Of a stretch of 58,755 bases of DNA, positions 20,301 to 55,570 are shown one piece after another. Every line of letters starts with the position of its first letter. Position 1 is the stretch's first letter. A program made the translations under genes and the position numbers. The stretch covers positions 1 through 58,755 of the forward strand of contig JAUCBJ010009003.1 of the NCBI GenBank assembly GCA_032718475.1, written 5' to 3'. Origin of the DNA: Nemertoderma westbladi. Taxonomy: Eukaryota > Animalia > Xenacoelomorpha. The notes under the pieces were generated by a model. It was not told the DNA's origin. It made no database searches and saw only the letters and a program-made list of their open reading frames with translations.

Positions 20301-21430
20301 AAGTGCCCACCCAAATATTTCTTAAAATCTATACTGTACTTGGCAAGTATTTTTTAATTCCTTAACAAATAATGCAAAATGTGGTAATTGTAAAAATTTA
20401 GTAAAATTATCATGCCAGTACCTTGCCATTAGGTAGTACTTTACTAATATGATAAGATTCTCAACCCGGGCTGATAGCCTCAATTTATTTGCGCCTAGTG
20501 TAAACTGCCCTACCGCCTGAACGGTACAATCCCAATTCAGGTGAAAACACAGCAACCCCCCTAGCCTACAAGTTCTAATGCAATGGACACCGTTGCACGG
20601 CAAATAGTCACAGACGCACCTGTACTTAGCAAGAGTTAAGCGTACAGTTTGCTGCACCCTAACCAATGTGTATGCCTTGTACCGGTGTGCCTACGTCCTA
20701 TCTGCGTACTAGTATCTGCCTGCGCTCTCCCCCCCCCCCCCCCCCGTAGGAATATGAAGGTCTACTGCGGTTTTTCCTGAATCAAGACAGTACAGTCCCT
20801 TTTGATGTAATTTTAGGCTTACAGCGTGTCACTACGTCTACCTTTTGATCTTTTGGTCTTATACTTAGGTAGCAAGGATCGAACGCTGTCTAACCTTTCA
20901 GGCGATGGGCGAATAACTCTAAATGGTATTGCGGGTTGTCTCTCGTCTACATTCCCGTGATGTTCCCGTTCATTGCTGCGGCCCGATCTCTAGCCGGCCA
21001 TCCTGTCCCTGAGTTTGTTCACCGTAGTGAATCCATAGTAAAACAGATAGAAAAGCTGAGAGAATATTCTGACTTTATTACAGAAGATACAATTATAATA
21101 CAATGTAATCTGAGAATAAACTAAGCACGACAGAATATTGATAAGATAATCTGAGAAAGATTGAGATATAAGATATAGTGTTGAGAGATTGATAACTAAT
21201 GAACAAATCGCACCTTTATATAGCAAATTTGTGCCGCAATCAATCGAGAAAATTCTCGATTGTTCTATGGGTTCTAACGGGGTTTTAAAGATAGCTATTG
21301 GTCCAGCTAATATATAACTTGCACGACATTGGTTACAATCAAATAACTACAGTCTCATTGGTACAGATAAATGCAATTAATTTGTAGCGGTTAATTTAAA
21401 TGAGTTGAAATTCTGTACAAAAAATAATTC

Positions 21431-21505
21431 GCACTTACTAGGATTCGAACTCAATACCTACTACACATATAATTTCCAACGCTCTACCGACTGAGCTACT
21501 GAACC
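21431..21505 (-). mobile_element. tRNA-derived SINE head or tRNA pseudogene
   Basis: Minus strand GGTTCAGTAGCTCAGTCGGTAGAGCG..GAGTTCGAATCC carries A and B boxes; acceptor and anticodon stems do not pair. Confidence 0.6.
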
Positions 21506-21631
21506 ACTTGACCGATAGATGTACAAATGATAGAACCAATACGAATGAGAACTTAAAGCAATCTTTACAAAGTTAATCCGAATAAAATAAAATTTTGAAA
21601 ATCCACGGCATTTAGGGAATATAATTCTATA

Positions 21632-24600
21632 TAATTATTTAATGTTGCTACTAATTATGTAAGTTTGTAATTATTTAATGTTGCTACTAATTATGTAAGT
21701 TTGTAATTATTTAATGTTGCTACTAATTATGTAAGTTTGTAATCATTTAATGTTGCTACTAATTATGTAAGTTTGTAATCATTTAATGTTGCTACTAATT
21801 ATGTAAGTTTGTAATTATTTAATGTTGCTACTAATTATGTAAGTTTGTAATTATTTAATGTTGCTACTAATTATGTAAGTTTGTAATTATTTAATGTTGC
21901 TACTAAGTATGTAAGTCTAAGTATGTAAGTTTGTAATCATTTAATGTTACTACTACGTATGTAAGTTTGTAACATGTAATGTTGATACTAATTATGTAAG
22001 TTTGTAATCATTTAATGTGCTACTAATTATGTAAGTTTGTAATCATTTAATGTTACTACTACGTATGTAAGTTTGTAATCATGTAATGTTGATACTAATT
22101 ATGTAAGTTTGTAATAATTTAATGTTGCTACTAATTATGTAAGTTTGTAATTATTTAATGTTGCTACTAATTATGTAAGTTTGTAATTATTTATTTAATG
22201 TTGCTACTAATTATGTAAGTTTGTAATCATTTAATGTTGGTACTACGTATGTAAGTTTGTAATCATGTAATGTTGATACTAATTATGTAAGTTTGTAATT
22301 ATTTAATGTTGCTACTAATTATGTAAGTTTGTAATTATTTAATGTTGCTACTAATTATGTAAGTTTGTAATTATTTATTTAATGTTGCTACTAATTATGT
22401 AAGTTTGTAATCTTTTAATGTTGGTACTAATTATGTAAGTTTGTAATCATTTAATGTTACTAACTAATTATGTAAGTTTGTAATCATTTAATGTTACTAC
22501 TACGTATGTAAGTTTGTAATCATGTAATGTTGATACTAATTATGTAAGTTTGTAATCATTTAATGTTACTACTACGTATGTAAGTTTGTAATCATGTAAT
22601 GTTGATACTAATTATGTAAGTTTGTTTAAAGGCGGGGTAGCTCATTTGGTTGAGCGCCGGGCCTGCAATCTAATGGTTGTAGGTTCAGCCCCGCCAGGGT
22701 CCACTCAGCCTTTCATCCACTGGGGTCGATAAAATGAGTACCAGTTAAATAACTGGGAGCAAAACTTGGGATAGGAGTAGCGCCCACCCCTACCCTCGGG
22801 TAGCAGCTATCGAAAGAGGAGCCTTCGGGTCGCCTCCGGCTTCGGCCGACTGTTTGCTTTGCTTTTTGCTTTTTGCTTTTACTACGTATGTAAGTTTGTA
22901 ATCATGTAATGTTGATACTAATTATGTAAGTTTGTAATCATTTAATGTTGCTACTAATTATGTAAGTTTGTAATCTTTTAATGTTGCTACTAAGTATGTA
23001 AGTTTGTAATCATGTAATGTTGCTACTAATTATGTAAGTTTGTAATTATTTAATGTTGCTACTAAGTATGTAAGTTTGTAATCATGTAATGTTGATACTA
23101 ATTATGTAAGTTTGTACTCATTTAATGTTGATACTAATTTATGTAAGTTTGTAATCATTTAATGTTGATACTAAGTATGTAAGTTTGTAATCATTTAATG
23201 TTGCTACTAATTATATAAGTTTGTAATCATTTAATGTTACTACTAATTATGTAAGTTTGTAATCATTTAATGTTGCTACTAATTATGTAAGTTTGTAATC
23301 ATTTAATGTTACTACTACGTATGTAAGTTTGTAATCATGTAATGTTGATACTAATTATATAAGTTTGTAATCATTTAATGTTGCTACTAATTATATAAGT
23401 TTGAAATCATTTAATGTTACTACTACGTATGTAAGTTTGTAATCATGTAATGTTGCTACTAATTATGTAAGTTTGTAATCATTTAATGTTGCTACTAATT
23501 ATGTAAGTTTGTAATCATTTAATGTTACTACTACGTATGTAAGTTTGTAATCATGTAATGTTGATACTAATTATGTAAGTTTGTAATTATTTAATGTTGC
23601 TACTAATTATGTAAGTTTGTAATTATTTAATGTTGCTACTAATTATGTAAGTTTGTAATTATTTAATGTTGCTACTAATTATGTAAGTTTGTAATCTTTT
23701 AATGTTGGTACTAATTATGTAAGTTTGTAATCATTTAATGTTACTAACTAATTATGTAAGTTTGTAATCATTTAATGTTACTACTACGTATGTAAGTTTG
23801 TAATCATGTATTGTTGATACTAATTATGTAAGTTTGTAATCATTTAATGTTACTACTACGTATGTAAGTTTGTAATCATGTAATGTTGATACTAATTATG
23901 TAAGTTTGTAATCATTTAATGTTACTACTACGTATGTAAGTTTGTAATCATGTAATGTTGATACTAATTATGTAAGTTTGTAATCATTTAATGTTGCTAC
24001 TAATTATGTAAGTTTGTTATCTTTTAATGTTGCTACTAAGTATGTAAGTTTGTAATCATGTAATGTTGCTACTCATTATGTAAGTTTGTAATCTTTTAAT
24101 GTTGCTACTAAGTATGTAAGTTTGTAATCATGTAATGTTGATACTAATTATGTAAGTTTGTACTCATTTAATGTTGATACTAATTTATGTAGGTTTGTAA
24201 TCATTTAATGTTGATACTAAGTATGTAAGTTTGTAATCATTTAATGTTGCTACTAATTATATAAGTTTGTAATCATTTAATGTTGCTACTAATTATATAA
24301 GTTTGTAATCATTTAATGTTACTACTACGTATGTAAGTTTGTAATCATTTAATGTTACTACTACGTATGTAAGTTTGTAATCATGTAATGTTGATACTAA
24401 TTATATAAGTTTGTAATCATTTAATGTTGCTACTAATTATATAAGTTTGTAATCATTTAATGTTACTACTACGTATGTAAGTTTGTAATCATGTAATGTT
24501 GCTACTAATTATGTAAGTTTGTAATCTTTTAATGTTGCTACTAATTATGTAAGTTTGTAATTATTTAATGTTGCTACTAATTATGTAAGTTTGTAATTAT

Positions 24601-24740
24601 TTAATGTTGCTACTAAGTATGTAAGTTTGTAATCATGTAATGTTGCTACTAATTATGTAAGTTTGTAATCATTTAATGTTGCTACTAATTATGTAAGTTT
24701 GTAATCATTTAATGTTGCTACTAAGTATGTAAGTTTGTAA
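21632..24740 (+). repeat. 36-bp tandem array (~80 units), consensus aattatttaatgttgctactaattat-GTAAGT-ttgt; probably derived from the preceding ACE exon end plus donor
   Basis: Direct inspection; interrupted by a SINE at 22631; ends ~100 nt before the acceptor at 24839. Confidence 0.95.
22631..22880 (+). mobile_element. tRNA-derived SINE inserted in the 36-bp array
   Basis: Head GGCGGGGTAGCTCATTTGGTTGAGCG..GGTTCAGCCCC; central CCACTCAGCCTTTCATCC..GGGGTCGATAAAATGAGTACCAG (resembles, from memory, the Meta-type SINE domain); GC-rich hairpin region; (TGCTTT)n tail. Confidence 0.85.
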
Positions 24741-24839
24741 ACCATATTGTTACTATACTCTGCGTATTAGTTTGAAAATTGTTATTGATGCTTCTATTAA
24801 AGTAAGTTTGTACTTATTAACACACTTGTATTATTATAG

Positions 24840-24988
24840 GCCGGGACTTACACACTGAAACCGCTGAAAACGTGGGCTGACTATTGGATTTCTTTGTACG
24901 ACGAGGAAGATCTAGAAAATACAGTTATGAGTCTCTGGGAGGATATTAAACCCGCATACCTCGAACTACATGCCTATACTCGGAATAA
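24840..24988 (+). CDS. ACE: ACE-like (peptidase M2) gene, first exon visible in the window
   Basis: tatag|GCC..AATAA|gtaagt; AGTYTLKPLKTWADYWISLYDEEDLENTVMSLWEDIKPAYLELHAYTRN aligns with ACE ..GDSWRSMYE..LQPLYLNLHAYVR; phase 2 joins 43422. Confidence 0.92.
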
Positions 24989-27900
24989 GTAAGTACCTCG
25001 AACTTAATGCCTATACTCGGAATAAGTAAGTACCTCGAACTATATTCCTTTACTCGGAATAAGTAAGTACCTCGAACTACATGCCTATACTCGGAATAAG
25101 TAAGTACCTCGAACTAGATGCCTATACTCGGAATAAGTAAGTACCTCGAACTACATGCCTATACTCGGAATAAGTAAGTATACCTCGAACTACATGCCTA
25201 TACTCGGAATAAGTAAGAACCTCGAACTACATGCCTATACTCGGAATAAGTAAGTACCTCGAACTATATTCCTTTACTCGGAATAAGTAAGTACCTCGAA
25301 CTACATGCCTATACTCGGAATAAGTAAGTACCTCGAACTACATGCACGTACTCGGAATAAGTAAGTACCTCGAACTACATGCCTATACTCGGAATAAGTA
25401 AGTACCTCGAACTACATGCCTATACTCGGAATAAGTAAGTACCTCGAACTATATTCCTTTACTCTGAATAAGTAAGTACCTCGAACTACATGCCCATACT
25501 CGGAATAAGTAAGTACCTCGAACTACATGCCTATACTCGGAATAAGTAAGTACCTCGAACTACATGCCTATACTCGGAATAAGTAAGTATACCTCGAACT
25601 ACATGCCTATACTCGGAATAAGTAAGAACCTCGAACTACATGCCTATACTCGGAATAAGTAAGTACCTCGAACTACATGCCTATACTCGGAATAAGTAAG
25701 TACCTCGAACTAGATGCCTATACTCGGAATAAGTAAGTACCTCGAACTACATGCCTATACTCGGAATAAGTAAGTATACCTCGAACTACATGCCTATACT
25801 CGGAATAAGTAAGAACCTCGAACTACATGCCTATACTCGGAATAAGTAAGTACCTCGAACTTAAGTAAGTACCTCGAACTACATGCCTATACTCGGAATA
25901 AGTAAGTATACCTCGAACTACATGCCTATACTCGGAATAAGTAAGAACCTCGAACTACATGCCTATACTCGGAATAAGTAAGAACCTCGAACTACATGCC
26001 TATACTCGGAATAAGTAAGTACCTCGAACTATATTCCTTTACTCGGAATAAGTAAGTACCTCGAACTACATGCCTATACTCGGAATAAGTAAGAACCTCG
26101 AACTACATGCCTATACTCGGAATAAGTAAGAACCTCGAACTACATGCCTATACTCGGAATAAGTAAGTACCTCGAACTATATTCCTTTACTCGGAATAAG
26201 TAAGTACCTCGAACTACATGCCTATACTCGGAATAAGTAAGTACCTCGAACTACATTCCTATACTCGGAATAAGTAAGTACCTCGAACTACAGCCTTTAC
26301 TCTGAATAAGTAAGTACGTCGAACTACATTCCTTTACTCTGAATAAGTAAGTACCTCGAACTACATTCCTATACTCGGAATAAGTAAGTACCTCGAACTA
26401 CATTCCTTTACTCGGAATAAGTAAGTACCTCGAACTATATTCCTTTACTCGGAATAAGTAAGTACCTCGAACTACATTCCTTTACTCGGAATAAGTAAGT
26501 ACCTCGAACTATATTCCTTTATTCTGAATAAGTAAGTACGTCGAACTACATTCCTTTACTCTGAATAAGTAAGTACCTCGAACTACATGCCTATACTCGG
26601 AATAAGTAAGTACCTCGAACTACATGCCCATACTCGGAATAAGTAAGTACCTCGAACTACATGCCTATACTCGGAATAAGTAAGTACCTCGAACTACATG
26701 CCCATACTCGGAATAAGTAAGTACCTCGAACTACATGCCTATACTCGGAATAAGTAAGTACCTCGAACTACATGCTTATACTCGGAATAAGTAAGTACCT
26801 CGAACTACATTCCTATACTCGGAATAAGTAAGTACCTCGAACTATATTCCTTTACTCTGAATAAGTAAGTACGTCGAACTACATTCCTTTACTCTGAATA
26901 AGTAAGTACCTCGAACTACATGCCTATACTCGGAATAAGTAAGTACCTCGAACTACATGCCTATACTCGGAATAAGTAAGTACCTCGAACTACAGCCTTT
27001 ACTCGGAATAAGTAAGTACCTCGAACTACATTCCTTTACTCGGAATAAGTACGTACCTCGAACTGTATTCCTATACTCGGAATAAGTAAGTACCTCGAAC
27101 TACATGCCTATACTCGGAATAAGTAAGTACCTCGAACTATATTCCTTTACTCTGAATAAGTAAGTACGTCGAACTACATTCCTTTACTCTGAATAAGTAA
27201 GTACGTCGAACTACATTCCTTTACTCTGAATAAGTAAGTACGTCGAACTACATTCCTTTACTCTGAATAAGTAAGTACCTCGAACTACAGCCTTTACTCG
27301 GAATAAGTAAGTACCTCGAACTACATTCCTTTACTCGGAATAAGTACGTACCTCGAACTGTATTCCTATACTCGGAATAAGTAAGTACCTCGAACTACAT
27401 GCCTATACTCGGAATAAGTAAGTACCTCGAACTATATTCCTTTACTCTGAATAAGTAAGTACGTCGAACTATATTCCTTTACTCTGAATAAGTAAGTACC
27501 TCGAACTACATGCCTATACTCGGAATAAGTAAGTACCTCGAACTACAGCCTTTACTCGGAATAAGTAAGTACCTCGAACTACATGCCTATACTCGGAATA
27601 AGTAAGTACCTCGAACTACAGCCTTTACTCGGAATAAGTAAGTACCTCGAACTACATTCCTTTACTCGGAATAAGTACGTACCTCGAACTGTATTCCTAT
27701 ACTCGGAATAAGTAAGTACCTCGAACTACATGCCTATACTCGGAATAAGTAAGTACCTCGAACTATATTCCTTTACTCTGAATAAGTAAGTACGTCGAAC
27801 TATATTCCTTTACTCTGAATAAGTAAGTACGTCGAACTATATTCCTTTACTCTGAATAAGTAAGTACCTCGAACTACAGCCTTTACTCGGAATAGTAAGT

Positions 27901-30900
27901 ACCTCGAACTACATGCCTATACTCGGAATAAGTAAGTACCTCGAACTACAGCCTTTACTCGGAATAAGTAAGTACCTCGAACTACATTCCTTTACTCGGA
28001 ATAAGTACGTACCTCGAACTGTATTCCTATACTCGGAATAAGTAAGTACCTCGAACTACATGCCTATACTCGGAATAAGTAAGTACCTCGAACTATATTC
28101 CTTTACTCTGAATAAGTAAGTACGTCGAACTACATTCCTTTACTCTGAATAAGTAAGTACGTCGAACTACATTCCTTTACTCTGAATAAGTAAGTACGTC
28201 GAACTACATTCCTATACTCGGAATAAGTAAGTACCTCGAACTACATGCCTATACTCGGAATAAGTAAGTACCTCGAACTACAGCCTTTACTCGGAATAAG
28301 TAAGTACCTCGAACTACATGCCTATACTCGGAATAAGTAAGTACCTCGAACTACAGCCTTTACTCGGAATAAGTAAGTACCTCGAACTACATTCCTTTAC
28401 TCGGAATAAGTACGTACCTCGAACTGTATTCCTATACTCGGAATAAGTAAGTACCTCGAACTACATGCCTATACTCGGAATAAGTAAGTACCTCGAACTA
28501 CAGCCTTTACTCGGAATAAGTAAGTACCTCGAACTACATGCCTATACTCGGAATAAGTAAGTACCTCGAACTACAGCCTTTACTCGGAATAAGTAAGTAC
28601 CTCGAACTACATTCCTTTACTCGGAATAAGTACGTACCTCGAACTGTATTCCTATACTCGGAATAAGTAAGTACCTCGAACTACATGCCTATACTCGGAA
28701 TAAGTAAGTACCTCGAACTATATTCCTTTACTCTGAATAAGTAAGTACGTCGAACTACATTCCTTTACTCTGAATAAGTAAGTACGTCGAACTACATTCC
28801 TTTACTCGGAATAAGTACGTACCTCGAACTGTATTCCTATACTCGGAATAAGTAAGTACCTCGAACTACATGCCTATACTCGGAATAAGTAAGTACCTCG
28901 AACTATATTCCTTTACTCTGAATAAGTAAGTACGTCGAACTACATGCCTATACTCGGAATAAGTAAGTACCTCTAACTACAGCCTTTACTCGGAATAAGT
29001 AAGTACCTCGAACTACATGCCTATACTCGGAATAAGTAAGTACCTCGAACTACAGCCTTTACTCGGAATAAGTAAGTACCTCGAACTACATGCCTATACT
29101 CGGAATAAGTAAGTACCTCGAATTACAGCCTTTACTCGGAATAAGTAAGTACCTCGAACTACATTCCTTTACTCGGAATAAGTACGTACCTCGAACTGTA
29201 TTCCTATACTCGGAATAAGTAAGTACCTCGAACTACATGCCTATACTCGGAATAAGTAAGTACCTCGAACTATATTCCTTTACTCTGAATAAGTAAGTAC
29301 GTCGAACTACATTCCTTTACTCTGAATAAGTAAGTACGTCGAACTACATTCCTTTACTCTGAATAAGTAAGTACGTCGAACTACATTCCTTTACTCTGAA
29401 TAAGTAAGTACCTCGAACTACAGCCTTTACTCGGAATAAGTAAGTACCTCGAACTACATTCCTTTACTCGGAATAAGTACGTACCTCGAACTGTATTCCT
29501 ATACTCGGAATAAGTAAGTACCTCGAACTACATGCCTATACTCGGAATAAGTAAGTACGTCGAACTACATTCCTTTACTCTGAATAAGTAAGTACCTCGA
29601 ACTACATGCCTATACTCGGAATAAGTAAGTACCTCGAACTACAGCCTTTACTCGGAATAAGTAAGTACCTCGAACTACATTCCTTTACTCGGAATAAGTA
29701 AGTACCTCGAACTACATTCCTTTACTCGGAATAAGTAAGTACCTCGAACTACATTCCTATACTCGGAATAAGTAAGTACCTCGAACTACATGCCTTTACT
29801 CGGAATAAGTACGTACCTCGAACTGTATTCCTATACTCGGAATAAGTAAGTACCTCGAACTACATGCCTATACTCGGAATAAGTAAGTACCTCGAACTAC
29901 AGCCTTTACTCGGAATAAGTAAGTACCTCGAACTACATTCCTTTACTCGGAATAAGTAAGTACCTCGAACTACATTCCTTTACTCGGAATAAGTACGTAC
30001 CTCGAACTGTATTCCTATACTCGGAATAAGTAAGTACCTCGAACTACATGCCTATACTCGGAATAAGTAAGTACCTCGAACTACATTCCTTTACTCGGAA
30101 TAAGTAAGTACCTCGAACTACATTCCTTTACTCGGAATAGGTAAGTACCTCGAACTACATTCCTATACTCGGAATAAGTAAGTACCTCGAACTACATGCC
30201 TTTACTCGGAATAAGTACGTACCTCGAACTGTATTCCTATACTCGGAATAAGTAAGTACCTCGAACTACATGCCTATACTCGGAATAAGTAAGTACCTCG
30301 AACTACAGCCTTTACTCGGAATAAGTAAGTACCTCGAACTACATTCCTTTACTCGGAATAAGTAAGTACCTCGAACTACATTCCTTTACTCGGAATAAGT
30401 ACGTACCTCGAACTGTATTCCTATACTCGGAATAAGTAAGTACCTCGAACTACATGCCTTTACTCGGAATAAGTAAGTACCTCGAACTACATTCCTTTAC
30501 TCGGAATAAGTAAGTACCTCGAACTACATTCCTTTACTCTGAATAAGTACGTACCTCGAACTGTATTCCTATACTCGGAATAAGTAAGTACCTCGAACTA
30601 CATGCCTATACTCGGAATAAGTAAGTACCTCGAACTATATTCCTTTACTCTGAATAAGTAAGTACGTCGAACTACATTCCTTTACTCTGAATAAGTAAGT
30701 ACCTCGAACTACATGCCCATACTCGGAATAAGTAAGTACCTCGAACTACATGCCTATACTCGGAATAAGTAAGTACCTCGAACTACATGCTTATACTCGG
30801 AATAAGTAAGTACCTCGAACTACATTCCTATACTCGGAATAAGTAAGTACCTCGAACTATATTCCTTTACTCTGAATAAGTAAGTACGTCGAACTACATT

Positions 30901-33900
30901 CCTTTACTCTGAATAAGTAAGTACCTCGAACTACATGCCTATACTCGGAATAAGTAAGTACCTCGAACTACATGCCTATACTCGGAATAAGTAAGTACCT
31001 CGAACTACAGCCTTTACTCGGAATAAGTAAGTACCTCGAACTACATTCCTTTACTCGGAATAAGTAAGTACCTCGAATTACATTCCTTTACTCTGAATAA
31101 GTAAGTACCTCGAACTACATGCCTATACTCGGAATAAGTAAGTACCTCGAACTGTATTCCTATACTCGGAATAAGTAAGTACCTCGAACTACATGCCTAT
31201 ACTCGGAATAAGTAAGTACCTCGAACTACAGCCTTTACTCGGAATAAGTAAGTACCTCGAACTACATGCCTATACTCGGAATAAGTAAGTACCTCGAACT
31301 ATATTCCTTTACTCTGAATAAGTAAGTACCTCGAACTACATTCCTTTACTCTGAATAAGTAAGTACCTCGAACTACATTCCTTTACTCGGAATAAGTAAG
31401 TACCTCGAACTACATTCCTTTACTCTGAATAAGTAAGTACCTCGAACTACATGCCTATACTCGGAATAAGTAAGTACCTCGAACTACATGCCTATACTCG
31501 GAATAAGTAAGTACCTCGAACTACAGCCTTTACTCGGAATAAGTAAGTACCTCGAACTACATGCCTATACTCGGAATAAGTAAGTACCTCTATCTACATT
31601 CCTTTACTCGGAATAAGTAAGTACCTCGAACTATATTCCTATACTCGGAATAAGTAAGAACCTCGAACTACATGCCTATACTCGGAATAAGTAAGTACCT
31701 CGAACTACATTCCTTTACTCGGAATAAGTAAGTACCTCGAACTACATTCCTTTACTCTGAATAAGTAAGTACCTCGAACTACATGCCTATACTCGGAATA
31801 AGTACGTACCTCGAACTGTATTCCTATACTCGGAATAAGTAAGTACCTCGAACTACATGCCTATACTCGGAATAAGTAAGTACCTCGAACTACAGCCTTT
31901 ACTCGGAATAAGTAAGTACCTCGAACTACATTCCTTTACTCGGAATAAGTAAGTACCTCGAACTACATTCCTTTACTCTGAATAAGTAAGTATCTCGAAC
32001 TACATGCCTATACTCGGAATAAGTAAGTACCTCGAACTACAGCCTTTACTCGGAATAAGTAAGTACCTCGAACTACATGCCTATACTCGGAATAAGTAAG
32101 TACCTCTATCTACATTCCTTTACTCGGAATAGGTATGTACATCGAACTATATTCCTTTACTCTGAATAAGTAAGTACGTCGAACTACATTCCTTTACTCT
32201 GAATAAGTAAGTACCTCGAACTACATGCCTATACTCGGAATAAGTAAGTACGTCGAACTATACAGCCTTTACTCGGAATGAGTAAGTACCTCGAACTACA
32301 TGCCTATACTCGGAATAAGTAAGTACCTCGAACTACATGCCTATACTCGGAATAAGTAAGTACCTCGAACTACATGCCTATACTCGGAATAAGTACGTAC
32401 CTCGAACTGTATTCCTATACTCGGAATAAGTAAGTACCTCAAACTACATGCCTATACTCGGAATAAGTAAGTACCTCGAACTACATGCCTATACTCGGAA
32501 TAAGTAAGTACCTCGAACTACATGCCTATACTCGGAATAAGTACGTACCTCGAACTGTATTCCTATACTCGGAATAAGTAAGTACCTCAAACTACATGCC
32601 TATACTCGGAATAAGTAAGTACCTCGAACTACATGCCCATACTCGGAATAAGTAAGTACCTCGAACTACATGCCCATACTCGGAATAAGTAAGTACCTCG
32701 AACTACATGCCTATACTCGGAATAAGTAAGTATACCTCGAACTACATGCCTATACTCGGAATAAGTAAGAACCTCGAACTACATGCCTATACTCGGAATA
32801 AGTAAGTACCTCGAACTACAGCCTATACTCGGAATAAGTAAGTACGTCGAACTACATTCCTATACTCGGAATAAATAAGTACCTCGAACTAGATGCCTAT
32901 ACTCGGAATAAGTACGTACCTCGAACTACATTCCTATACTCGGAATAAGTAAGTACCTCGAACTACATTCCTATACTCGGAATAAGTAAGTACGTCGAAC
33001 TACGTTCCTATACTCGGAATAAGTAAGTACGTCGAACTACGTTCCTATACTCTGAATAAGTAAGTACCTCGAACTATACAGCCTTTACTCGGAATGAGTA
33101 AGTATCTCGAACTACATTCCTTTACTCGGAATAAGTAAGTGCCTTGAACTACATGCCTATACTCGGAATAAGTAAGTACCTCGAACTACATGCCTATACT
33201 CGGAATAAGTAAGTACCTCGAACTATACAGCCTTTACTCGGAATGAGTAAGTATCTCGAACTACATTCCTTTACTCGGAATAAGTAAGTACCTTGAACTA
33301 CATGCCTATACTCGGAATAAGTAAGTACCTCGAACTACATGCCTATACTCGGAATAAGTAAGTACCTCGAACTAGATGCCTATACTCGGAATAAGTACGT
33401 ACCTCGAACTACATTCCTATACTCGGAATAAGTAAGTACCTCGAACTACATTCCTATACTCGGAATAAGTAAGTACGTCGAACTACAGCCTATACCCGGA
33501 ATAAGTAAGTACCTCGAACTACATTCCTTTACTCGGAATAAGTAAGTACCTCGAACTACATGCCTATACTCGGAATAAGTAAGTACCTCGAACTACATGC
33601 CTATACCCGGAATAAGTAAGTACCTCGAACTACATTCCTTTACTCGGAATAAGTAAGTACCTCGAACTACATGCCTATACTCGGAATAAGTAAGTACCTC
33701 GAACTACATTCCTATACTCGGAATAAGTAAGTACCTCGAACTATACAGCCTTTACTCGGAATGAGTAAGTACCTCGAACTATATTCCTTTATTCTGAATA
33801 AGTAAGTACGTCGAACTACATGCCTATACCCGGAATAAGTAAGTACCTCGAACTACATTCCTTTACTCGGAATAAGTAAGTACCTCGAACTACATGCCTA

Positions 33901-36900
33901 TACTCGGAATAAGTAAGTACCTCGAACTACATGCCTATACCCGGAATAAGTAAGTACCTCGAACTACATTCCTTTACTCGGAATAAGTAAGTACCTCGAA
34001 CTACATGCCTATACTCGGAATAAGTAAGTACCTCGAACTACATTCCTATACTCGGAATAAGTAAGTACCTCGAACTATACAGCCTTTACTCGGAATGAGT
34101 AAGTACCTCGAACTATATTCCTTTACTCTGAATAAGTAAGTACGTCGAACTACAGCCTTTACTCGGAATAAGTAAGTACCTCTAACTACATTCCTATACT
34201 CGGAATAATTACGTACGTCGAACTGTATTCCTTTACTCGGAATAAGTACGTACCTCGAACTGTATTCCTATACTCGGAATAAGTAAGTACCTCGAACTAC
34301 ATGCCTATACTCGGAATAAGTAAGTACCTCGAACTATATTCCTTTACTCTGAATAAGTAAGTACCTCGAACTACATGCCTATACTCGGAATAAGTAAGTA
34401 CCTCTAACTAAATTCCTATACTCGGAATAAGTACGTACCTCGAACTGTATTCCTATACTCGGAATAAGTAAGTACCTCGAACTACATGCCTATACTCGGA
34501 ATAAGTAAGTACCTCGAACTATATTCCTTTACTCTGAATAAGTAAGTACCTCGAACTACATGCCTATACTCGGAATAAGTAAGTACCTCTAACTAAATTC
34601 CTATACTCGGAATAAGTACGTACCTCGAACTGTATTCCTATACTCGGAATAAGTAAGTACCTCGAACTACATTCCTATACTCGGAATAAGTAAGTACGTC
34701 GAACTACGTTCCTATACTCGGAATAAGTAAGTACGTCGAACTACGTTCCTATACTCTGAATAAGTAAGTACCTCGAACTATACAGCCTTTACTCGGAATG
34801 AGTAAGTATCTCGAACTACATTCCTTTACTCGGAATAAGTAAGTGCCTTGAACTACATGCCTATACTCGGAATAAGTAAGTACCTCGAACTACATGCCTA
34901 TACTCGGAATAAGTAAGTACCTCGAACTATACAGCCTTTACTCGGAATGAGTAAGTATCTCGAACTACATTCCTTTACTCGGAATAAGTAAGTACCTTGA
35001 ACTACATGCCTATACTCGGAATAAGTAAGTACCTCGAACTACATGCCTATACTCGGAATAAGTAAGTACCTCGAACTAGATGCCTATACTCGGAATAAGT
35101 ACGTACCTCGAACTACATTCCTATACTCGGAATAAGTAAGTACCTCGAACTACATTCCTATACTCGGAATAAGTAAGTACGTCGAACTACAGCCTATACC
35201 CGGAATAAGTAAGTACCTCGAACTACATTCCTTTACTCGGAATAAGTAAGTACCTCGAACTACATGCCTATACTCGGAATAAGTAAGTACCTCGAACTAC
35301 ATGCCTATACCCGGAATAAGTAAGTACCTCGAACTACATTCCTTTACTCGGAATAAGTAAGTACCTCGAACTACATGCCTATACTCGGAATAAGTAAGTA
35401 CCTCGAACTACATTCCTATACTCGGAATAAGTAAGTACCTCGAACTATACAGCCTTTACTCGGAATGAGTAAGTACCTCGAACTATATTCCTTTATTCTG
35501 AATAAGTAAGTACGTCGAACTACATGCCTATACCCGGAATAAGTAAGTACCTCGAACTACATTCCTTTACTCGGAATAAGTAAGTACCTCGAACTACATG
35601 CCTATACTCGGAATAAGTAAGTACCTCGAACTACATGCCTATACCCGGAATAAGTAAGTACCTCGAACTACATTCCTTTACTCGGAATAAGTAAGTACCT
35701 CGAACTACATGCCTATACTCGGAATAAGTAAGTACCTCGAACTACATTCCTATACTCGGAATAAGTAAGTACCTCGAACTATACAGCCTTTACTCGGAAT
35801 GAGTAAGTACCTCGAACTATATTCCTTTACTCTGAATAAGTAAGTACGTCGAACTACAGCCTTTACTCGGAATAAGTAAGTACCTCTAACTACATTCCTA
35901 TACTCGGAATAATTACGTACGTCGAACTGTATTCCTTTACTCGGAATAAGTACGTACCTCGAACTGTATTCCTATACTCGGAATAAGTAAGTACCTCGAA
36001 CTACATGCCTATACTCGGAATAAGTAAGTACCTCGAACTATATTCCTTTACTCTGAATAAGTAAGTACCTCGAACTACATGCCTATACTCGGAATAAGTA
36101 AGTACCTCTAACTAAATTCCTATACTCGGAATAAGTACGTACCTCGAACTGTATTCCTATACTCGGAATAAGTAAGTACGTCGATCTATATTCCTTTACT
36201 CTGAATAAGTAAGTACCTCGAACTACATGCCTATACTCGGAATAAGTAAGTACCTCTAACTACATTCCTATACTCGGAATAATTACGTACGTCGAACTGT
36301 ATTCCTTTACTCGGAATAAGTAAGTACCTCGAACTATATTCCTTTACTCTGAATAATTAAGTACCTCGAACTACATGCCTATACTCGGAATAAGTAAGTA
36401 CCTCTAACTACATTCCTATACTCGGAATAAGTACGTACCTCGAACTGTATTCCTATACTCGGAATAAGTAAGTACCTCAAACTGCATTCCTATACTCGGA
36501 ATAAGTAAGTACCTCTAACTACATGCCTATACTCGGAATAAGTAAGTACCTCGAACTATATTCCTTTACTCGGAATAAGTAAGTACCTCGAACTATATTC
36601 CTTTACTCTGAATAAGTAAGTACCTCGAACTACAGCCTTTACTCGGAATAAGTAAGTACCTCGAACTATATTCCTATACTCGGAATAAGTAAGTACCTCG
36701 AACAATATTCCTTTACTCGGAATAAGTAAGTACCTCGAACTACATGCCTATACTCGGAATAAGTAAGTACCTCTAACTACGTCCCTATACTCGGAATAAG
36801 TAAGTACCTCGAACTACATTCCTTTACTCGGAATAAGTAAGTACCTCGACCTACATGCCTATACTTGGAATAAGTAAGTACCTCGAATTACATTTCTTTA

Positions 36901-39900
36901 CTCGGAATAAGTAACTACCTCGTACTAGATGCCTATACTCGGAATAAGTAAGTACCTCGAACTACATGCCTATACTCGGAATAAGTAAGTACCTCGAACT
37001 ACAGCCTTTACTCGGAATAAGTAAGTACCTCGAACTACATTCCTTTACTCGGAATAAGTAAGTACCTCGAACTACATGCCTATACTCGGAATAAGTAAGT
37101 ACCTCGAACTACAGCCTTTACTCGGAATAAGTAAGTACCTCGAACTACATTCCTATACTCGGAATAAGTAAGTACCTCTAACTACGTCCCTATACTCGGA
37201 ATAAGTAAGTACCTCGAACTACATTCCTTTACTCGGAATAAGTAAGTACCTCGAACTACATGCCTATACTCGGAATAAGTAAGTACCTCGAATTACATTC
37301 CTTTACTCGGAATAAGTAACTACCTCGAACTAGATGCCTATACTCGGAATAAGTAAGTACCTCGAACTACATGCCTATACTCGGAATAAGTAAGTACCTC
37401 GAACTACAGCCTTTACTCGGAATAAGTAAGTACCTCGAACTACATTCCTATACTCGGAATAAGTAAGTACCTTGAACTACAGCATTCACTCGGAATAAGT
37501 AAGTACCTCGAACTACATTCCTATACTCGGAATAAGTAAGTACCTCGAACTACATGCCTATACTCGGAATAAGTAAGTACCTCGAACTACATGCCTATAC
37601 TCGAAATAAGTAAGTACCTCGAACTACAGCCTTTACTCGGAATAAGTAAGTACCTCGAACTACATTCCTATACTCGGAATAAGTAAGTACCTCGAACTAC
37701 AGCCTTTACTCGGAATAAGTAAGTACCTCGAACTACATTCCTATACTCGGAATAAGTAAGTACCTCGAACTACATTCCTTTACTCGGAATAAGTAAGTAC
37801 CTCGAACTACATGCCTATACTCGGAATAAGTAAGTACCTCGAACTACATTCCTATACTCGGAATAAGTAAGTACGTCGAACTACATGCCTATACTCGGAA
37901 TAAGTAAGTACGTCGAACTACATTCCTATACTCGGAATAAGTAAGTACCTCGAACTACATGCCTATACTCGGAATAAGTAAGTACCTCGAACTACATTCC
38001 TATACTCGGAATAAGTAAGTACGTCGAACTACATGCCTATACTCGGAAGAAGTAAGTACCTCGAACTACATGCCTATACTCGGAATAAGTAAGTACCTCG
38101 AACTACATTCCTATACTCGGAATAAGTAAGTACGTCGAACTACATGCCTATACTCGGAATAAGTAAGTACGTCGAACTACATGCCTATACTCGGAATAAG
38201 TAAGTACCTCGAACTACATTCCTATACTCGGAATAAGTAAGTACCTCGAACTACAGCCTTTACTCGGAATAAGTAAGTACCTCGAACTACATTCCTATAC
38301 TCGGAATAAGTAAGTACCTCGAACTACATGCCTATACTCGGAATAAGTAAGTACCTCGAACTACAGCCTTTACTCGGAATAAGTAAGTACCTCGAACTAC
38401 ATGCCTATACTCGGAATAAGTAAGTACCTCGAACTACATGCCTATACTCGGAATAAGTAAGTACCTCGAACTACATGCCTATACTCGGAATAAGTAAGTA
38501 CCTCGAACTACATTCCTATACTCGGAATAAGTAAGTACGTCGAACTACATTCTTATACTCGGAATAAGTAAGTACCTCGAACTACATTCCTATACTCGGA
38601 ATAAGTAAGTACGTCGAACTACATTCCTATACTCGGAATAAGTAAGTACGTCGAACTACATGCCTATACTCGGAATAAGTAAGTACGTCGAACTATATTC
38701 CTATACTCGGAATAAGTAAGTACGTCGAACTACATTCCTATACTCGGAATAAGTAAGTACGTCGAACTACATTCCTATACTCGGAATAAGTAAGTACCTC
38801 GAACTACATTCCTATACTCGGAATAAGTAAGTACGTCGAACTACATGCCTATACTCGGAATAAGTAAGTACGTCGAACTACATTCCTATACTCGGAATAA
38901 GTAAGTACCTCGAACTACATTCCTATACTCGGAATAAGTAAGTACCTCGAACTATATTCCTATACTCGGAATAAGTAAGTACCTCGAACTACATGCCTAT
39001 ACTCGGAATAAGTAAGTACCTCGAATTACATTCCTTTACTCGGAATAAGTAACTACCTCGAACTAGATGCCTATACTCGGAATAAGTAAGTACCTCGAAC
39101 TACATGCCTATACTCGGAATAAGTAAGTACCTCGAACTACAGCCTTTACTCGGAATAAGTAAGTACCTCGAACTACATTCCTATACTCGGAATAAGTAAG
39201 TACCTTGAACTACAGCATTCACTCGGAATAAGTAAGTACCTCGAACTACATTCCTATACTCGGAATAAGTAAGTACCTCGAACTACATGCCTATACTCGG
39301 AATAAGTAAGTACCTCGAACTACATGCCTATACTCGAAATAAGTAAGTACCTCGAACTACAGCCTTTACTCGGAATAAGTAAGTACCTCGAACTACATTC
39401 CTATACTCGGAATAAGTAAGTACCTCGAACTACAGCCTTTACTCGGAATAAGTAAGTACCTCGAACTACATTCCTATACTCGGAATAAGTAAGTACCTCG
39501 AACTACATTCCTTTACTCGGAATAAGTAAGTACCTCGAACTACATGCCTATACTCGGAATAAGTAAGTACCTCGAACTACATTCCTATACTCGGAATAAG
39601 TAAGTACCTCGAACTACAGCCTTTACTCGGAATAAGTAAGTACCTCGAACTACATTCCTATACTCGGAATAAGTAAGTACCTCGAACTACATTCCTTTAC
39701 TCGGAATAAGTAAGTACCTCGAACTACATGCCTATACTCGGAATAAGTAAGTACCTCGAACTACATTCCTATACTCGGAATAAGTAAGTACCTCGAACTA
39801 CAGCCTTTACTCGGAATAAGTAAGTACCTCGAACTACATTCCTTTACTCGGAATAAGTAAGTACCTCGAACTACATGCCTATACTCGGAATAAGTAAGTA

Positions 39901-41888
39901 CCTCGAACTACATTCCTATACTCGGAATAAGTAAGTACCTCGAACTACAGCCTTTACTCGGAATAAGTAAGTACCTCGAACTACATTCCTATACTCGGAA
40001 TAAGTAAGTACCTCGAACTACATGCCTATACTCGGAATAAGTAAGTACCTCGAACTACAGCCTTTACTCGGAATAAGTAAGTACCTCGAACTACATGCCT
40101 ATACTCGGAATAAGTAAGTACCTCGAACTACATGCCTATACTCGGAATAAGTAAGTACCTCGAACTACATGCCTATACTCGGAATAAGTAAGTACCTCGA
40201 ACTACATTCCTATACTCGGAATAAGTAAGTACGTCGAACTACATTCTTATACTCGGAATAAGTAAGTACCTCGAACTACATTCCTATACTCGGAATAAGT
40301 AAGTACGTCGAACTACATTCCTATACTCGGAATAAGTAAGTACGTCGAACTACATGCCTATACTCGGAATAAGTAAGTACGTCGAACTACATTCCTATAC
40401 TCGGAATAAGTAAGTACGTCGAACTACATTCCTATACTCGGAATAAGTAAGTACGTCGAACTACATTCCTATACTCGGAATAAGTAAGTACCTCGAACTA
40501 CATTCCTATACTCGGAATAAGTAAGTACGTCGAACTACATGCCTATACTCGGAATAAGTAAGTACGTCGAACTACATTCCTATACTCGGAATAAGTAAGT
40601 ACGTCGAACTACATTCCTATACTCGGAATAAGTAAGTACCTCGAACTACATTCCTATACTCGGAATAAGTAAGTACGTCGAACTACATGCCTATACCCGG
40701 AATAAGTAAGTACCTCGAACTATATTCCTATACTCGGAATAAGTAAGTACGTCGAACTACATTCCTATACTCGGAATAAGTAAGTACGTCGAACTACATT
40801 CTTATACTCGGAATAAGTAAGTACCTCGAACTACATTCCTATACTCGGAATAAGTAAGTACGTCGAACTACATTCCTATACTCGGAATAAGTAAGTACCT
40901 CGAACTACATGCCTATACCCGGAATAAGTAAGAACCTCGAACTACATTCCTATACTCGGAATAAGTAAGTACGTCGAACTACATTCCTATACTCGGAATA
41001 AGTAAGTACCTCGAACTACATGCCTATACCCGGAATAAGTAAGAACCTCGAACTACATTCCTATACTCGGAATAAGTAAGAACCTCGAACTACATTCCTT
41101 TACTCTGAATAAGTAAGAACCTCGAACTACATTCCTATACTCGGAATAAGTAAGTACGTCGAACTACATTCCTATACTCGGAATAAGTAAGTACCTCTAA
41201 CTACATTCCTATACTCGGAATAAGTAAGTACCTCGAACTACATGCCTATACCCGGAATAAGTAAGTACCTCGAACTACATTCCTATACTCGGAATAAGTA
41301 AGTACGTCGAACTACTTTCCTATACTCGGAATAAGTAAGTACCTCGAACTACATTCCTATACTCGGAATAAGTAAGTACGTCGAACTACATTCCTATACT
41401 CGGAATAAGTAAGTACCTCGAACTACATTCCTATACTCGGAATAAGTAAGTACCTCGAACTACATTCCTATACTCGGAATAAGTAAGTACGTCGAACTAC
41501 ATTCCTATACTCGGAATAAGTAAGTACCTCGAACTACATTCCTTTACTCGGAATAAGTAAGTACCTCGAACTACATTCCTTTACTCGGAATAAGTAAGTA
41601 CCTCGAACTACATTCCTATACTCGGAATAAGTAAGTACGTCGAACTACAGCCTATACCCGGAATAAGTAAGTACCTCGAACTACATTCCTATACTCGGAA
41701 TAAGTAAGTACCTCGAACTACATTCCTTTACTCGGAATAAGTAAGTACGTCGAACTACAGCCTATACCCGGAATAAGTAAGTACCTCGAACTACATTCCT
41801 ATACTCGGAATAAGTAAGTACCTCGAACTATATTCCTTTACTCGGAATAAGTAAGTACGTCGAACTACGTTCCTATACTCGGAATAAG
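24958..41888 (+). repeat. 37-bp tandem satellite (~460 units, 16.9 kb); unit = last 31 nt of the exon + GTAAGT donor
   Basis: Consensus acctcgaactacatgcctatactcggaataa-gtaagt; the first unit is the real exon end. Confidence 0.98.
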
Positions 41889-42969
41889 AGAGGATCAAAG
41901 AGAGGGAACCCCCCCCCCCCCCCAACCCGAAGGCGGACACAGGATTGATGGAATTTGTGTTTTAAAAGTAATATGTTATATTTATTTTTAATATAACACA
42001 AAATACAACTGAAAGCGATTCACAAATACAAACATCACAAATTTCTAGCAAAAATAATTAAAGATCGCATATTATTTAATTTATATTTTTAATACAAATT
42101 TAATTTAACTAACAAAGAAATCAATAAACTCGGTTATTGTTAACATGTTAAACCCTTAAAGTAATATATTAAATATTTTAGGCGTGGAGGCGACCCAATT
42201 TGTAAGAAATATAAAACTTACCGTATGCCGATAGTATTGATACTGGTATATTAATTTATCATGTCAACGCCTCAACGAAATTATTTAGCTAATTATTCTA
42301 AAGAATCATGATTAAGTACTCGGCCAATCATTTTGCAAGCTAAACACAATAACCAAGCTGGCTTATTAGTCTGGCTCATTACAATGCTGCCTTTGAGTAG
42401 TGATGAGGTGGTTGGACTGGTTTCCCTTGCAAGCTAGGCTAGCTGGGAAGGCTAGCCTTCCCAGCTAGGCTAGCAAGCATGCCAAAGGAATGAGGGAGCT
42501 ATGGAAGTATTGCTGGAGACAGGGGATTTTAATAAGTTAATTACCTTTAGATCAATTAAAAACACGTTTCTTAAAGCAAATCTCTTAAACTAATTAAAAA
42601 CTATAATGGAATGGGGTATGGGAAATACAGCTGTATAATTGTTAAGTATAATTATTTAAATCTTATTCTAGAAAAAAATTTACTATCCTTTACGAGGCAG
42701 GTTGAAAATGCTGTTTTTACCCTAATCAACTTAATTAACTAATTAACTGCTATTATCTTAGCTTCTCAAAGGCCACACGGAAATTCAACTTGGAAAATTG
42801 CTAATATTTTGCCAGACTACATGTGTACCTAGTTTGGATAGATTTCATTAAGATTTGGCTGAGTTATTAACGTTTAAAATGGGACACAACAGATCGACAG
42901 AACAACAGACATACCGATTGAGTTAGTGGTACCTGTATGCTAAGCTCGCTTACTTTAGTGGCTCGCCCC
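41889..42969. other. ~1.08 kb insertion splitting the end of the 37-bp array (unclassified, probably a non-autonomous TE)
   Basis: Satellite resumes at 42970; contains a 42-bp palindrome and ends in gctcgct..gctcgccc. Confidence 0.5.
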
Positions 42970-43048
42970 ACTACATGCCTATACTCGGAATAAGTAAGTA
43001 CCTCGAACTAGATGCCTATACTCGGAATAAGTAAGTACCTCGAACTAC
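42970..43048 (+). repeat. Detached terminal ~2 units of the 37-bp satellite
   Basis: actacatgcctatactcggaataagtaagtacctcgaactagatgcc...cgaactac. Confidence 0.95.
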
Positions 43049-43421
43049 TATATTTGCAAAATGAAATAGTCATAGAAGGGGTAACGCCCCTCCCTTAACC
43101 TTATACATGAATTGTCGGTACAAGTATGTACAAGTAATCATATCCAATATACTCGCTAAAAATCAAATATAACAATTATATATTGTAATCAACTTAATTA
43201 ACTCTAAGTACAAAAATGTAATGATATTAAATTATTGAATTATTTTTAAGAAATTGATTTTATAAATTTTAACATTTTATAATAAAATTTCATACTAGAG
43301 ATCCTAAGGTAGATAAAGACTATTGTCTTCTCTATTACAATACCCAGAACAGTAATCCTATAAATTGCTCATTATATTATGACTTGTAACTGTGGTTATA
43401 TAACTTCTTTCACTTTTTTAG

Positions 43422-43553
43422 ATTAAACAAACTTTACGGGGATGATATTGTGAATAAGAAAGCGCCGATTCCAGCCAACTTGCTAGGCGATATGTGGGCG
43501 CAGTCGTGGATACCACTGTTGGATATACTGAAACCATACCCTGATGCAACTGA
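43422..43553 (+). CDS. ACE: ACE-like gene exon
   Basis: ttttag|A..GA|gtaagt; (K)LNKLYGDDIVNKKAPIPANLLGDMWAQSWIPLLDILKPYPDAT matches ACE GPIPAHLLGNMWAQTW. Confidence 0.95.
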
Positions 43554-44036: not shown

Positions 44037-44187
44037 TTACAGCGAAATCGCCGAAGAGAATGTTCCCCTTTCAGTAGATCCGGATTTCTTCACATTTTTA
44101 ACGAATAAATTGTTCCTTGATTTAGAATTAATTAAAATCGGTATTCCTAACACGAATTCAGTGTTTCAGAGGATATTAAATGTTGAT
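44037..44187 (+). CDS. ACE: ACE-like gene exon (divergent)
   Basis: cctttcag|T..GAT|gtaagt; (D)YSEIAEENVPLSVDPDFFTFLTNKLFLDLELIKIGIPNTNSVFQRILNVD. Phases (2 in, 0 out) and length fit the gap before VCHASAW. Confidence 0.82.
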
Positions 44188-44204: not shown

Positions 44205-45040
44205 GGTCTCCGGACAATTCATACCCGGACAATTCGTACCAGACAATTCGTACCCGGACAATTCGTACCCGGACAATACGTACCCGGACAATTCGTACCA
44301 GACAATTTGTACCCGGACAATTCGTACCAGACAATTCGTACCCGGACAGTTCGTACCAGACAATTCGTAACAGACAATACGTACCCGGACAATTCGTACC
44401 AGACAATTCGTACAAGACAATTCGTACCAGACAATTCGTACCAGACAATTCGTACCAGACAATTCGTACAAGACAATTCGTACCAGACAATTCGTGCCCG
44501 GACAATTCGTACCAGACAATTCGTACCCGGACAATTCGTACCAGACAATTCGTACCAGACCGGACAATTATTACCAGACAATTCGTACCAGATAATATGT
44601 ACCAGACAATACGTATCCGGACAATTCGTACCAGACAATTCGTACCCGGACAATTATTACCAGACAATTCGTACCAGACAATTCGTACCTGGACATTTCG
44701 AATTCGTACCAGACAATACGTACCCAGACAATTCGTACTAGACAATACGTACCCGGACAATTATTACCCGACAATTCGTACCAGACAATACGTACCAGAC
44801 AATACGTACCCGGACAATTCGTACCAGCCAATTCGTACCCGGACAATTCGTACCAGCCAATTCGTACCCGGACAATTCGTACCCGGAAAATTCGTACACA
44901 TCATAAAAAAAATTTCAGGTACGAATTGTCCGGGTACGAATTGTCCGGTACGAATTGTCCGGGTATGAATTGTCCGGTACGAATTGTCCGGGTATGAATT
45001 GTCCGGTACGAATTGTCCGGGTATGAATTGTCCTAACTTC
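44205..45040. mobile_element. Non-autonomous foldback element (Mutator/Phantom-like) with inverted arrays of ~15-bp repeats and a 9-bp TSD
   Basis: (gacaattcgtacc[c/a]g)n then inverted (ggtacgaattgtcc)n; aatcacaac at 44196-44204 and 45041-45049. Confidence 0.75.
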
Positions 45041-46609: not shown

Positions 46610-47090
46610 GGCAGATCCCAAATTCCATACTCCCAAATCCCAAATACCTTAATCCCAAATACCTTATTCCAAAATCCCAAATACCTTATTCCCAAATCCC
46701 AAATACCTTATTCCCAAATCCCAAATACCTTATTCCCAAATCCCAAATACCTTATTTCCAAATTCCAAATACCTTATTCCCAAATCCCTTATTCCCAAAT
46801 CCCAAATACCTTATTCCCAAATCCCAAATACCTTATTCCCAAATCCCAAATACCTTATTCCCAAATCCCAAATACCTTATTTCCAAATCCCAAATACCTT
46901 ATTCCCAAATCCCTTATTCCCAAATCCCAAATACCTTAATCCCAAATACCTTATTCCCAAATCCCAAATACCTTATTCCCAAATCCCAAATACCTTATTT
47001 CCAAATTCCAAATACCTTATTCCCAAATCCCAAATACCTTATTCCCAAATCCCTTATTCCCAAATTCCTTAATCCCACATGGTATTTGAG
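46610..47090. repeat. Tandem repeat (cccaaatcccaaataccttatt)n, ~22-bp period; possibly one arm of another foldback element
   Basis: Direct inspection; short inverted copy (atggtatttgag) at the right end. Confidence 0.85.
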
Positions 47091-47249
47091 TCCAGTTCCC
47101 CCCCCCCCCCCCCCCTGTCTCTTTTTTTATATATTCAACTTATTATACTGTATATTATAATAATGCATATTTTTATATGACGGTGTCTGTCGAAACTGGT
47201 GGAATGTTTTACGTAATTTTATACAGTACAAGTTTATTTATATTTTTAG

Positions 47250-47543
47250 ATGGTTTGTCACGCATCTGCCTGGTATATTCCCATCACACGAGACCAAGCT
47301 GAATACCGGGTAAAGATCTGCATGTCTAACCAAAGTATAGATGATGTATACACGCTATTCCACGAATCCGGCCATATTCTCTACTACTACTTCATGCAGA
47401 CGAATCAAAACAACGTCGCATTTCGTCAACAACCAAGTCCGGCGTTTCAGGAAACCGTAGGATATACCGTGAATCTACTCGCCAATAACCCAGCTTATCT
47501 CCAATCTATTGAATTTCTACCAAACGATTTTAAATATACAAAA
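47250..47543 (+). CDS. ACE: ACE-like gene exon with zinc-binding motifs
   Basis: ttttag|ATG..AAA|gttagt; MVCHASAW..TLFHESGHILYY..PSPAFQETVG (HEXXH plus downstream Glu ligand). Confidence 0.95.
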
Positions 47544-48223: not shown

Positions 48224-48383
48224 GAAATTGAAACCAACTCACTTATGCGGAACATGCTATCGAAGTTGGCCTTTATGCCCTACGCCTTACTTCTCGATCT
48301 ATACAGATGGAAGTTGTTCCGGGGCGAAATTCAACCGGAAAATATCAACTCGGAATATTGGAAAATGCGGCGAGATTTCCAAG
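48224..48383 (+). CDS. ACE: ACE-like gene exon
   Basis: ctttcag|GAA..CAAG|gtataa; EIETNSLMRNMLSKLAFMPYALLLDLYRWKLFRGEIQPENINSEYWKMRRDFQG. This frame is not in the ORF track. Confidence 0.93.
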
Positions 48384-49430: not shown

Positions 49431-49606
49431 GTGTTATGGAACCAGTATACAGAGAGGAAGGAGACTTCGATCCCGGTGCCAAGTTCCATGTTGTCACGCA
49501 TCAGACTTACCTTCGGTACTTCCTAGCCGAGATTCTACACTTCCAAGTTTATAGTAACATGTGTAAAAGGAGTGGACAGGAAGTTGATAACTGTACAGTA
49601 ACTAAG
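49431..49606 (+). CDS. ACE: ACE-like gene exon
   Basis: ttgcag|GT..AAG|gttagt; VMEPVYREEGDFDPGAKFHVVTHQTYLRYFLAEILHFQVYSNMC. Confidence 0.95.
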
Positions 49607-55569: not shown

Positions 55570-55570
55570 T

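Follow-up and report, generated by a model that had tools for sequence, protein, structure and literature searches.

A 459-copy exon-intron-boundary minisatellite in an ACE-like gene of Nemertoderma westbladi, probably tolerated through choice of the first splice donor

How is a gene spliced when the end of one of its exons, together with the donor behind it, is repeated several hundred times in the following intron, and do the copies serve any purpose? The question is raised by a 58,755-nt stretch of the xenacoelomorph Nemertoderma westbladi (contig JAUCBJ010009003.1 of assembly GCA_032718475.1, positions 1 to 58,755 of the forward strand; hereafter the window), in which a gene resembling those for the peptidase ACE harbors a 17-kb array of 37-bp units. 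The favored answer, to which we give a probability of roughly 0.7, is that the array is a 459-copy exon-intron-boundary ("mirage") minisatellite in an intact ACE-like gene, that it grew neutrally by unequal crossing-over, and that it is tolerated because the first donor is the one chosen.

The array comprises 459 units by a dynamic-programming split (Table 1), in agreement with an earlier note on this DNA, made from the letters alone, which had counted about 460 copies of an exon end and its donor over 17 kb. Tandem Repeats Finder (TRF) finds it too, in two pieces, and with up to 3 mismatches allowed, a 15-mer from the unit matches at 437 places, where 100 shuffles average 1.03; the window sequence is free of any N. 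Most units measure 37 bp (396), the others 36 bp (46), 38 bp (nine), 39 bp (five) and 19, 34, and 35 bp (one each). There are 80 distinct monomers, with a mean pairwise identity between units of 0.93, and the one seen most often, in 105 copies, has the sequence of unit 1. That unit (24958-24994) consists of the final 31 nt of exon A plus GTAAGT and encodes YLELHAYTRN. Reading through the first donor yields AAT AAG TAA, so any internal donor would include an in-frame TAA at 24990-24992, as had been noticed before, and the intron (24989-43421) measures 18,433 nt, matching the 18.4 kb given then. The monomers show a higher-order period of 46 units (autocorrelation 0.225, expected 0.086), and the same 41 consecutive monomers occur at 32955 and at 34659, which together point to block duplication. 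The last two units are detached from the rest by a 1.08-kb insertion (41891-42969), no second copy of which occurs within the window; these two units (42970-43048) and a linked second array in the previous intron were absent from the earlier note. Annotators should be warned that the array gives weak, spurious tblastn matches to ACE scattered along its 17 kb.

Judged by its sequence, the host is an intact ACE-like gene of peptidase family M2 (PF01401). Six of seven exon pieces score above the PF01401 cut-off (33.5-66.9 bits against 23), exon C alone falling below. For exon D (47250-47543), a comparison with ACE structures from human and insects reaches a best E of 1.7e-22, and the exon's HESGH zinc motif (HEXXH) and the downstream Glu align with human ACE. 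Eight exons, all with AG and GT at their flanks, give 511 codons without internal stop, and this frame ends in a predicted transmembrane segment (21-residue hydropathy peak 3.06). The open frame and a spliced contig described below rule out a pseudogene. The best of 150 homologs retrieved are 34-36% identical to the predicted protein across some 420 aa, the named relatives being ACE-like proteins of sea cucumber, moths, and lancelet. A HMMER search with exon D gave 217 matches, and a word-indexed protein search with the same exon returned nine candidates, none at E 0.001 or better. The gene thus shares with peptidase M2 the HEXXH motif, the downstream Glu, and a predicted C-terminal membrane anchor, yet it is divergent, at no more than 48% identity among the 150 relatives of exon D listed. 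The 5' part of the gene does not lie within the window, where tblastn with the 150 homologs gave no match at E < 0.1 upstream of 24840.

The choice of donor is visible in public sequencing data: four of the six runs listed hold query words (X1 to X4). X4 comes from another sample (S3), in which the array may have another length. It holds 0.24 of the sampled words of 47200-49950, a region in which exonic 31-mers make up 682 of 2721 (0.251). Because intronic words are missing and exons are joined, X4 is taken to be RNA or cDNA. Three of its contigs are placed on 24700-25068. One of them (2346 nt, depth 546) covers 24840-24988 with zero differences and continues into the first 30 letters of the exon at 43422; none of the three lies on units 2-3, contigs of this kind dropping rare forms. 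The junction 24988^43422, the check that the earlier note had proposed, is therefore present in one spliced contig, which also makes the boundary 24988/24989 a real exon end, while the internal donors that the note had considered as alternatives are represented by no contig. Because X4 joins 24988 to 43422 and has no contig on the array, the first donor is judged to be the donor used, as seen in this one run.

Conservation was assessed on 457 full units, two partial ones being dropped. GT is kept in 452 of them, GTAAGT in 409 and the whole stretch from -3 to +6 of the real donor in 397. However, most non-donor positions of the unit are as invariant as the donor positions: when the 37 circular windows are ranked, the 9-nt donor comes 5th and the hexamer 10th; p is 0.23, 0.31, and 0.36 by rank tests (the third of them run on 77 distinct types) and 0.45 and 0.39 by counts of distinct variant alleles. 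The donor positions are thus not significantly more conserved than the others, and the selection on donors contemplated earlier finds no backing. Among the 396 units of 37 bp, 65% of the differences fall on unit positions 11-19, so the previously described clustering of variation in the formerly coding part holds; five positions, however, carry 76% of all differences, which is expected if a few early mutations were amplified. Likewise, the donor earlier called perfect deserves the word for +1 to +6 only: position -1 is A, and the site pairs with the U1-complement consensus at 8/11 positions, without surpassing two other donors of the gene.

None of the 67 YAG sites in the 37-bp array is preceded by a pyrimidine tract (at least 10 pyrimidines in 14), and it is therefore improbable that units are defined as exons in their own right; self-contained cryptic exons were rejected on this count. 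A structured RNA was also rejected, the first units folding no better than shuffles (z +1.55) and Rfam giving 0 matches in 21500-25400, as was an array of spliced-leader (SL) RNA genes, the 37-bp unit being copied from a coding exon and showing neither an Rfam match nor a folding signal. The five donors of exons B-F have undergone no duplication comparable to the 37-bp array. At exon F, a weak twofold 24-bp repeat starts from the donor (49607-49690, within the intron 49607-49752) and includes a third donor-like GTTAGTTAC at about 49676; it is possibly a nascent or decayed third boundary repeat.

The previous intron holds a second, more diverged array with a 36-bp unit, in which 72 of 80 units (79 anchored ones and a degenerate one close to exon A) carry GTAAGT. 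The array is interrupted by a 255-bp insertion (22626-22880), which by eye looks like a short interspersed element (SINE) derived from a tRNA and in which ARAGORN and Rfam found nothing. The origin of this array is suggested by X4, in which exon A occurs with two different 5' partners. The first of them (685 nt, depth 108) keeps the frame and resembles the helix that precedes in ACE; its final 27 nt agree, ungapped, at 18 of 27 positions with the 27 nt before the GTAAGT of the 36-bp array, and at 19 of 27 with two common variants of the unit (binomial p 3e-5 to 8e-4); furthermore, a 16-mer of this partner has five matches in the array at 2 mismatches against 0.01 expected. It is therefore likely that the 36-bp array derived, at an earlier time, from the end of the previous coding exon and its donor and was later separated from that exon. 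Identity to the presumed source is about 67-70%, and the separation exceeds 21 kb including retrotransposon sequence. Two differently diverged arrays in consecutive introns would present birth, homogenization, break-up by insertion, and possible reuse of a donor within one gene.

The favored reading combines these observations as follows. Slippage on short microhomology would have duplicated the exon end and its donor; unit 1 and the intron-side copies are alike in having T before them and ACC at their start. Repeated unequal exchange would then have enlarged and homogenized the array, amplifying a few early variants and whole 46-unit blocks, and insertions would later have broken it up. The previous intron likely underwent the same boundary-repeat process earlier. 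During splicing, the 149-nt exon would be committed through its acceptor and the nearest donor. Such exon definition across the donor array, already proposed in the earlier note, is the likely explanation of the X4 contig in which the first donor is joined to 43422. The other copies would leave with the intron because they have no upstream acceptor to pair with, and the cost of a slip to an internal donor would be small, since the product, carrying the TAA at 24990, would probably be degraded.

Several points weigh against this reading. X4 represents another sample, in which the array may be short or absent, so that its contig need not reflect splicing across the full 17 kb; its automatic label is "DNA?" and its status as RNA is inferred; and since contigs drop rare forms, a low use of internal donors is compatible with its data. 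The donor hexamer carries 7% of the differences on 16% of the unit length, a selection-like direction that is not significant, the low share being driven by the five variable positions. In the human genes IFI6 and CBS, splicing also draws on the one or two pseudo-donors that come next (PMC1557585). Lastly, donors of the 36-bp type are apparently not always silent. The second 5' partner of exon A in X4 (record 27, 71 nt, joined at 24840) reaches a depth of 180 against 108 for the coding partner, and 6 of the 80 36-bp units, including the last full one, have its last 11 letters just before their donor. This partner contains an in-frame stop seven codons before the junction, and the rest of its shown letters, like the upstream coding exon end, has 0 matches in the window at up to 3 mismatches. 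The simplest reading would be a splice from a 36-bp-type donor situated just behind other sequence, in keeping with a first-donor rule; the partner may instead be a cryptic exon, an alternative first exon, a trans-spliced leader, or a paralog.

The length of 17 kb is provisional, as neither reads nor contigs were seen to cross the whole array. X1 (study P1, possibly the one from which the window comes) and X2 and X3 (one sample, study P2) are DNA runs available, like X4, as short-read contigs, and all three carry both repeat units at high depth. None of these three covers 24752-24946, a gap from which no conclusion is drawn. Under assignments chosen post hoc, four of the eight pieces listed for X1 give a depth of 29-54 per window copy and five of the six X3 pieces checked (of eight listed) give 1.4-1.9; the remaining pieces fit no such per-copy value. 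Dividing the depth of the 37-bp array by that of the 36-bp array gives 7.7-11 for X1, 1.3-1.7 for X2, and 0.8-1.6 for X3, summed contig depth not being equivalent to copy number, against 5.7 by unit count in the window and 2.3-8.5 when simulated from it. This is a weak hint that relative array lengths differ between the two samples. If length does vary between animals, short and long alleles would provide a ready dose series. An array that is real and of inflated length, for instance through false duplication of a 46-unit block by the assembly, would account for the exact 41-monomer repeat and for the want of a spanning read or contig. This is nevertheless quite improbable: the 80 distinct monomers show regional gradients, the sequence has no N, the runs of two studies carry the unit at high depth with the per-copy values just given, the X1 ratio lies near that of the window, and discounting one false block would shorten the array by only about 10%.

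Could the array be more than tolerated? It might modify expression according to its length, if rare skipping to internal donors or slowed transcription lowered the mRNA by copy number, with nonsense-mediated decay (NMD) acting through the TAA at 24990. Every internal donor includes that stop, GT persists in nearly all units, the depth ratios of X1 and of X2/X3 (0.8-1.7 together) hint weakly at length variation, a donor of the 36-bp type is seemingly used in X4, and a 31-bp variable number tandem repeat (VNTR) in human CBS is listed, in the accessible part of the source, as raising homocysteine and lowering CBS (PMC1395315). We consider such a function unlikely, since the donors are without excess conservation, the pseudo-sites of the human gene F7 are functional yet do not compete (PMC1557585, as far as its accessible part goes), and no X4 contig lies on the 37-bp units, a weak argument because forms degraded by NMD are invisible in contigs. 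Of the features of a poison-splicing switch, the premature stop (24990-24992) is present, and conservation of the donors beyond their surroundings, gauged within the array, is not (p 0.23-0.45). A selected sink for U1 snRNP, or a protector of the nascent RNA against premature cleavage, could draw on about 450 U1-pairing sites per transcript, 388 of which share the 8/11 match of the real donor. However, compared with the nascent transcripts that one locus makes, U1 is very abundant, the donors bear no signal of selection, and a single AATAAA in the array leaves it little of its own to shield; this proposal is accordingly the hardest to credit and must be called very improbable. A bolder version, which we regard as doubtful, would have the gene repeatedly turning exon ends into tunable donor satellites, the 37-bp array acting as a copy-number dial through NMD-bound mis-splicing and the 36-bp array as the donor of an abundant alternative 5' exon. 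If true, a mirage repeat would have been caught in the act of creating a new transcript form.

Table 1. Position and properties of the repeat arrays, exons, and insertions of the ACE-like gene in the window
Feature	Position	Strand	Remarks
Second array, 36-bp unit	21632-24740	+	27 nt + GTAAGTTTG; 79 anchored units; previous intron
Insertion of 255 bp within the 36-bp array	22626-22880	+	tRNA-derived SINE-like by eye
Degenerate 36-bp unit	24775-24810	+	GTAAGT at 24802; 38 nt separate it from the acceptor of exon A
Exon A	24840-24988	+	149 nt; PF01401 E 6.7e-9; exactly covered by X4 contig 26; last 31 nt are those of unit 1
37-bp array of exon end and donor	24958-41890	+	459 units; 31 exonic nt + GTAAGT; 46-unit period
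First (authentic) donor GTAAGT	24989-24994	+	TAA at 24990-24992 in frame if read through
Non-array insertion of 1.08 kb splitting off the last units	41891-42969	.	Single copy in window
Two detached 37-bp units	42970-43048	+	Behind the 1.08-kb insertion
Unique intron remainder with pyrimidine tract and acceptor	43049-43421	+	13/14 pyrimidines
Exon B	43422-43553	+	First 30 letters joined to 24988 in X4 contig; PF01401 E 3.1e-12
Exon C (predicted)	44037-44187	+	Keeps the frame open; no Pfam match alone
Exon D	47250-47543	+	HESGH; the Glu downstream of it aligns with ACE's third zinc ligand region
Exon E	48224-48383	+	PF01401 E 9e-16
Exon F	49431-49606	+	PF01401 E 2.2e-15
Exon G	49753-49924	+	Predicted donor 49925; read-through stops at 49936-49938
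Terminal exon (predicted)	56956-57257	+	Transmembrane segment and cytoplasmic tail; tblastn E 4.7e-4

Other elements occupy the window as well. Retrotransposon-like coding sequence, Bel/Pao integrase-like by eye, extends over 1-16000 on the minus strand, a region that falls within the inferred upstream intron. The sequence has recurring blocks: 84-bp repeats lie at 6191 and 13947, and related ones at 3261 and 9075. Between it and the 36-bp array, inverted repeats of 37 nt (17519-17555 and 20434-20470) lie 2.9 kb apart and are 78% complementary, possibly the ends of a DNA transposon. Just after the donor of exon C lies what looks like an inserted foldback-type element (44213-45033): about 47 tandem copies of a 14/15-bp unit precede an inverted run of that unit, and copies of a TTxAATCACAAC-like stretch stand on either side, at 44194 and 45037. 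A strand-biased repeat of 9-13 bp (ATCCCAAAT/ACCTTATTCCCAA) with a GC skew of -0.55 is found at 46615-47065. The predicted last intron contains, on the minus strand, a long terminal repeat (LTR) retrotransposon (50657-55810, gag/pol-like by eye), the LTRs of which (240 bp; 50657-50896 and 55571-55810) are 99.6% identical, so the insertion is recent.

Architectures of this kind have been described before, as far as the accessible parts of the papers go, and the novelty implied by the earlier note falls away: human F7, CBS, IFI6, LMNB2, and PDGF and several lancelet genes share it. The closest parallel is the 37-bp VNTR in intron 7 of human F7, with 5-9 copies in which 4 nt are exonic and 33 intronic; its first unit lies across the boundary and its pseudo-donors are functional, only the most upstream donor being used (PMC1557585). 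Both arrays thus place the first monomer over an exon-intron boundary, continue with identical donors, and employ the most upstream one; the common unit length of 37 bp is a coincidence. In contrast to F7, the array described here has 459 copies, 31 exonic and 6 intronic nt per unit, and a higher-order structure, and no sequence relationship is claimed. Similar cases are IFI6 (6-16) intron 2 with 25 pseudo-sites, CBS intron 13 with 15-20, LMNB2 with 10-15, and PDGF intron 4 with 16-18 (PMC1557585). In all four the donor recurs in the intron that follows, at copy numbers about 18-fold or more below 459. As in F7, the first donor is used in LMNB2 and PDGF (PMC1557585), while the additional use of two pseudo-sites in IFI6 and CBS has no counterpart among the X4 contigs for the 37-bp array.

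The "mirage" minisatellites of lancelets, known from Adh3 and the globins BflGb6 and BflGb9 (PMC3087553) and also from PGBD5 and troponin C (PMC3902484), leave splicing undisturbed. Like the present array, they are boundary copies in an invertebrate gene, with splice signals in many units, normal splicing, concerted evolution, and units of 10-160 bp; the features found here accord with that description, as unit 1 spans the real boundary, the 37-bp unit lies within the size range, the donor is reiterated, and normal mRNA arises from the authentic site (in one run). The lancelet globins have 3-6 units, unlike the satellite-scale array and its more diverged companion in the previous intron, and among boundary minisatellites somatic instability is reported for lancelet Adh3 only. 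Human genes in segmental duplications likewise show minisatellite expansion at exon-intron boundaries that lengthens introns, with units of 30 bp on average repeated four times on average (PMC2812944). Other repeats are more distant: those treated in PMC10078293 shift splicing by other routes, its accessible part having nothing on donor arrays, and the units of MelSat01 in Meloidogyne (PMC9673304) contain a leader of about 90 nt with an SL exon, a donor, and an Sm site, all of them conserved, features that the 37-bp array is without. A literature search covering few subscription journals and leaving aside the supplements of PMC2812944 and PMC3087553, which could hold larger numbers, gave neither anything on this gene nor a boundary minisatellite with copies in the hundreds. 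The kind of repeat is already known, and what differs is the number of copies, 459 against 3-26 in the published cases compared, together with the second array in the previous intron. With about 450 intact competing donors behind a 149-nt exon, against at most 25 pseudo-donors in those published cases, the locus constitutes a strong natural test of 5' splice site choice.

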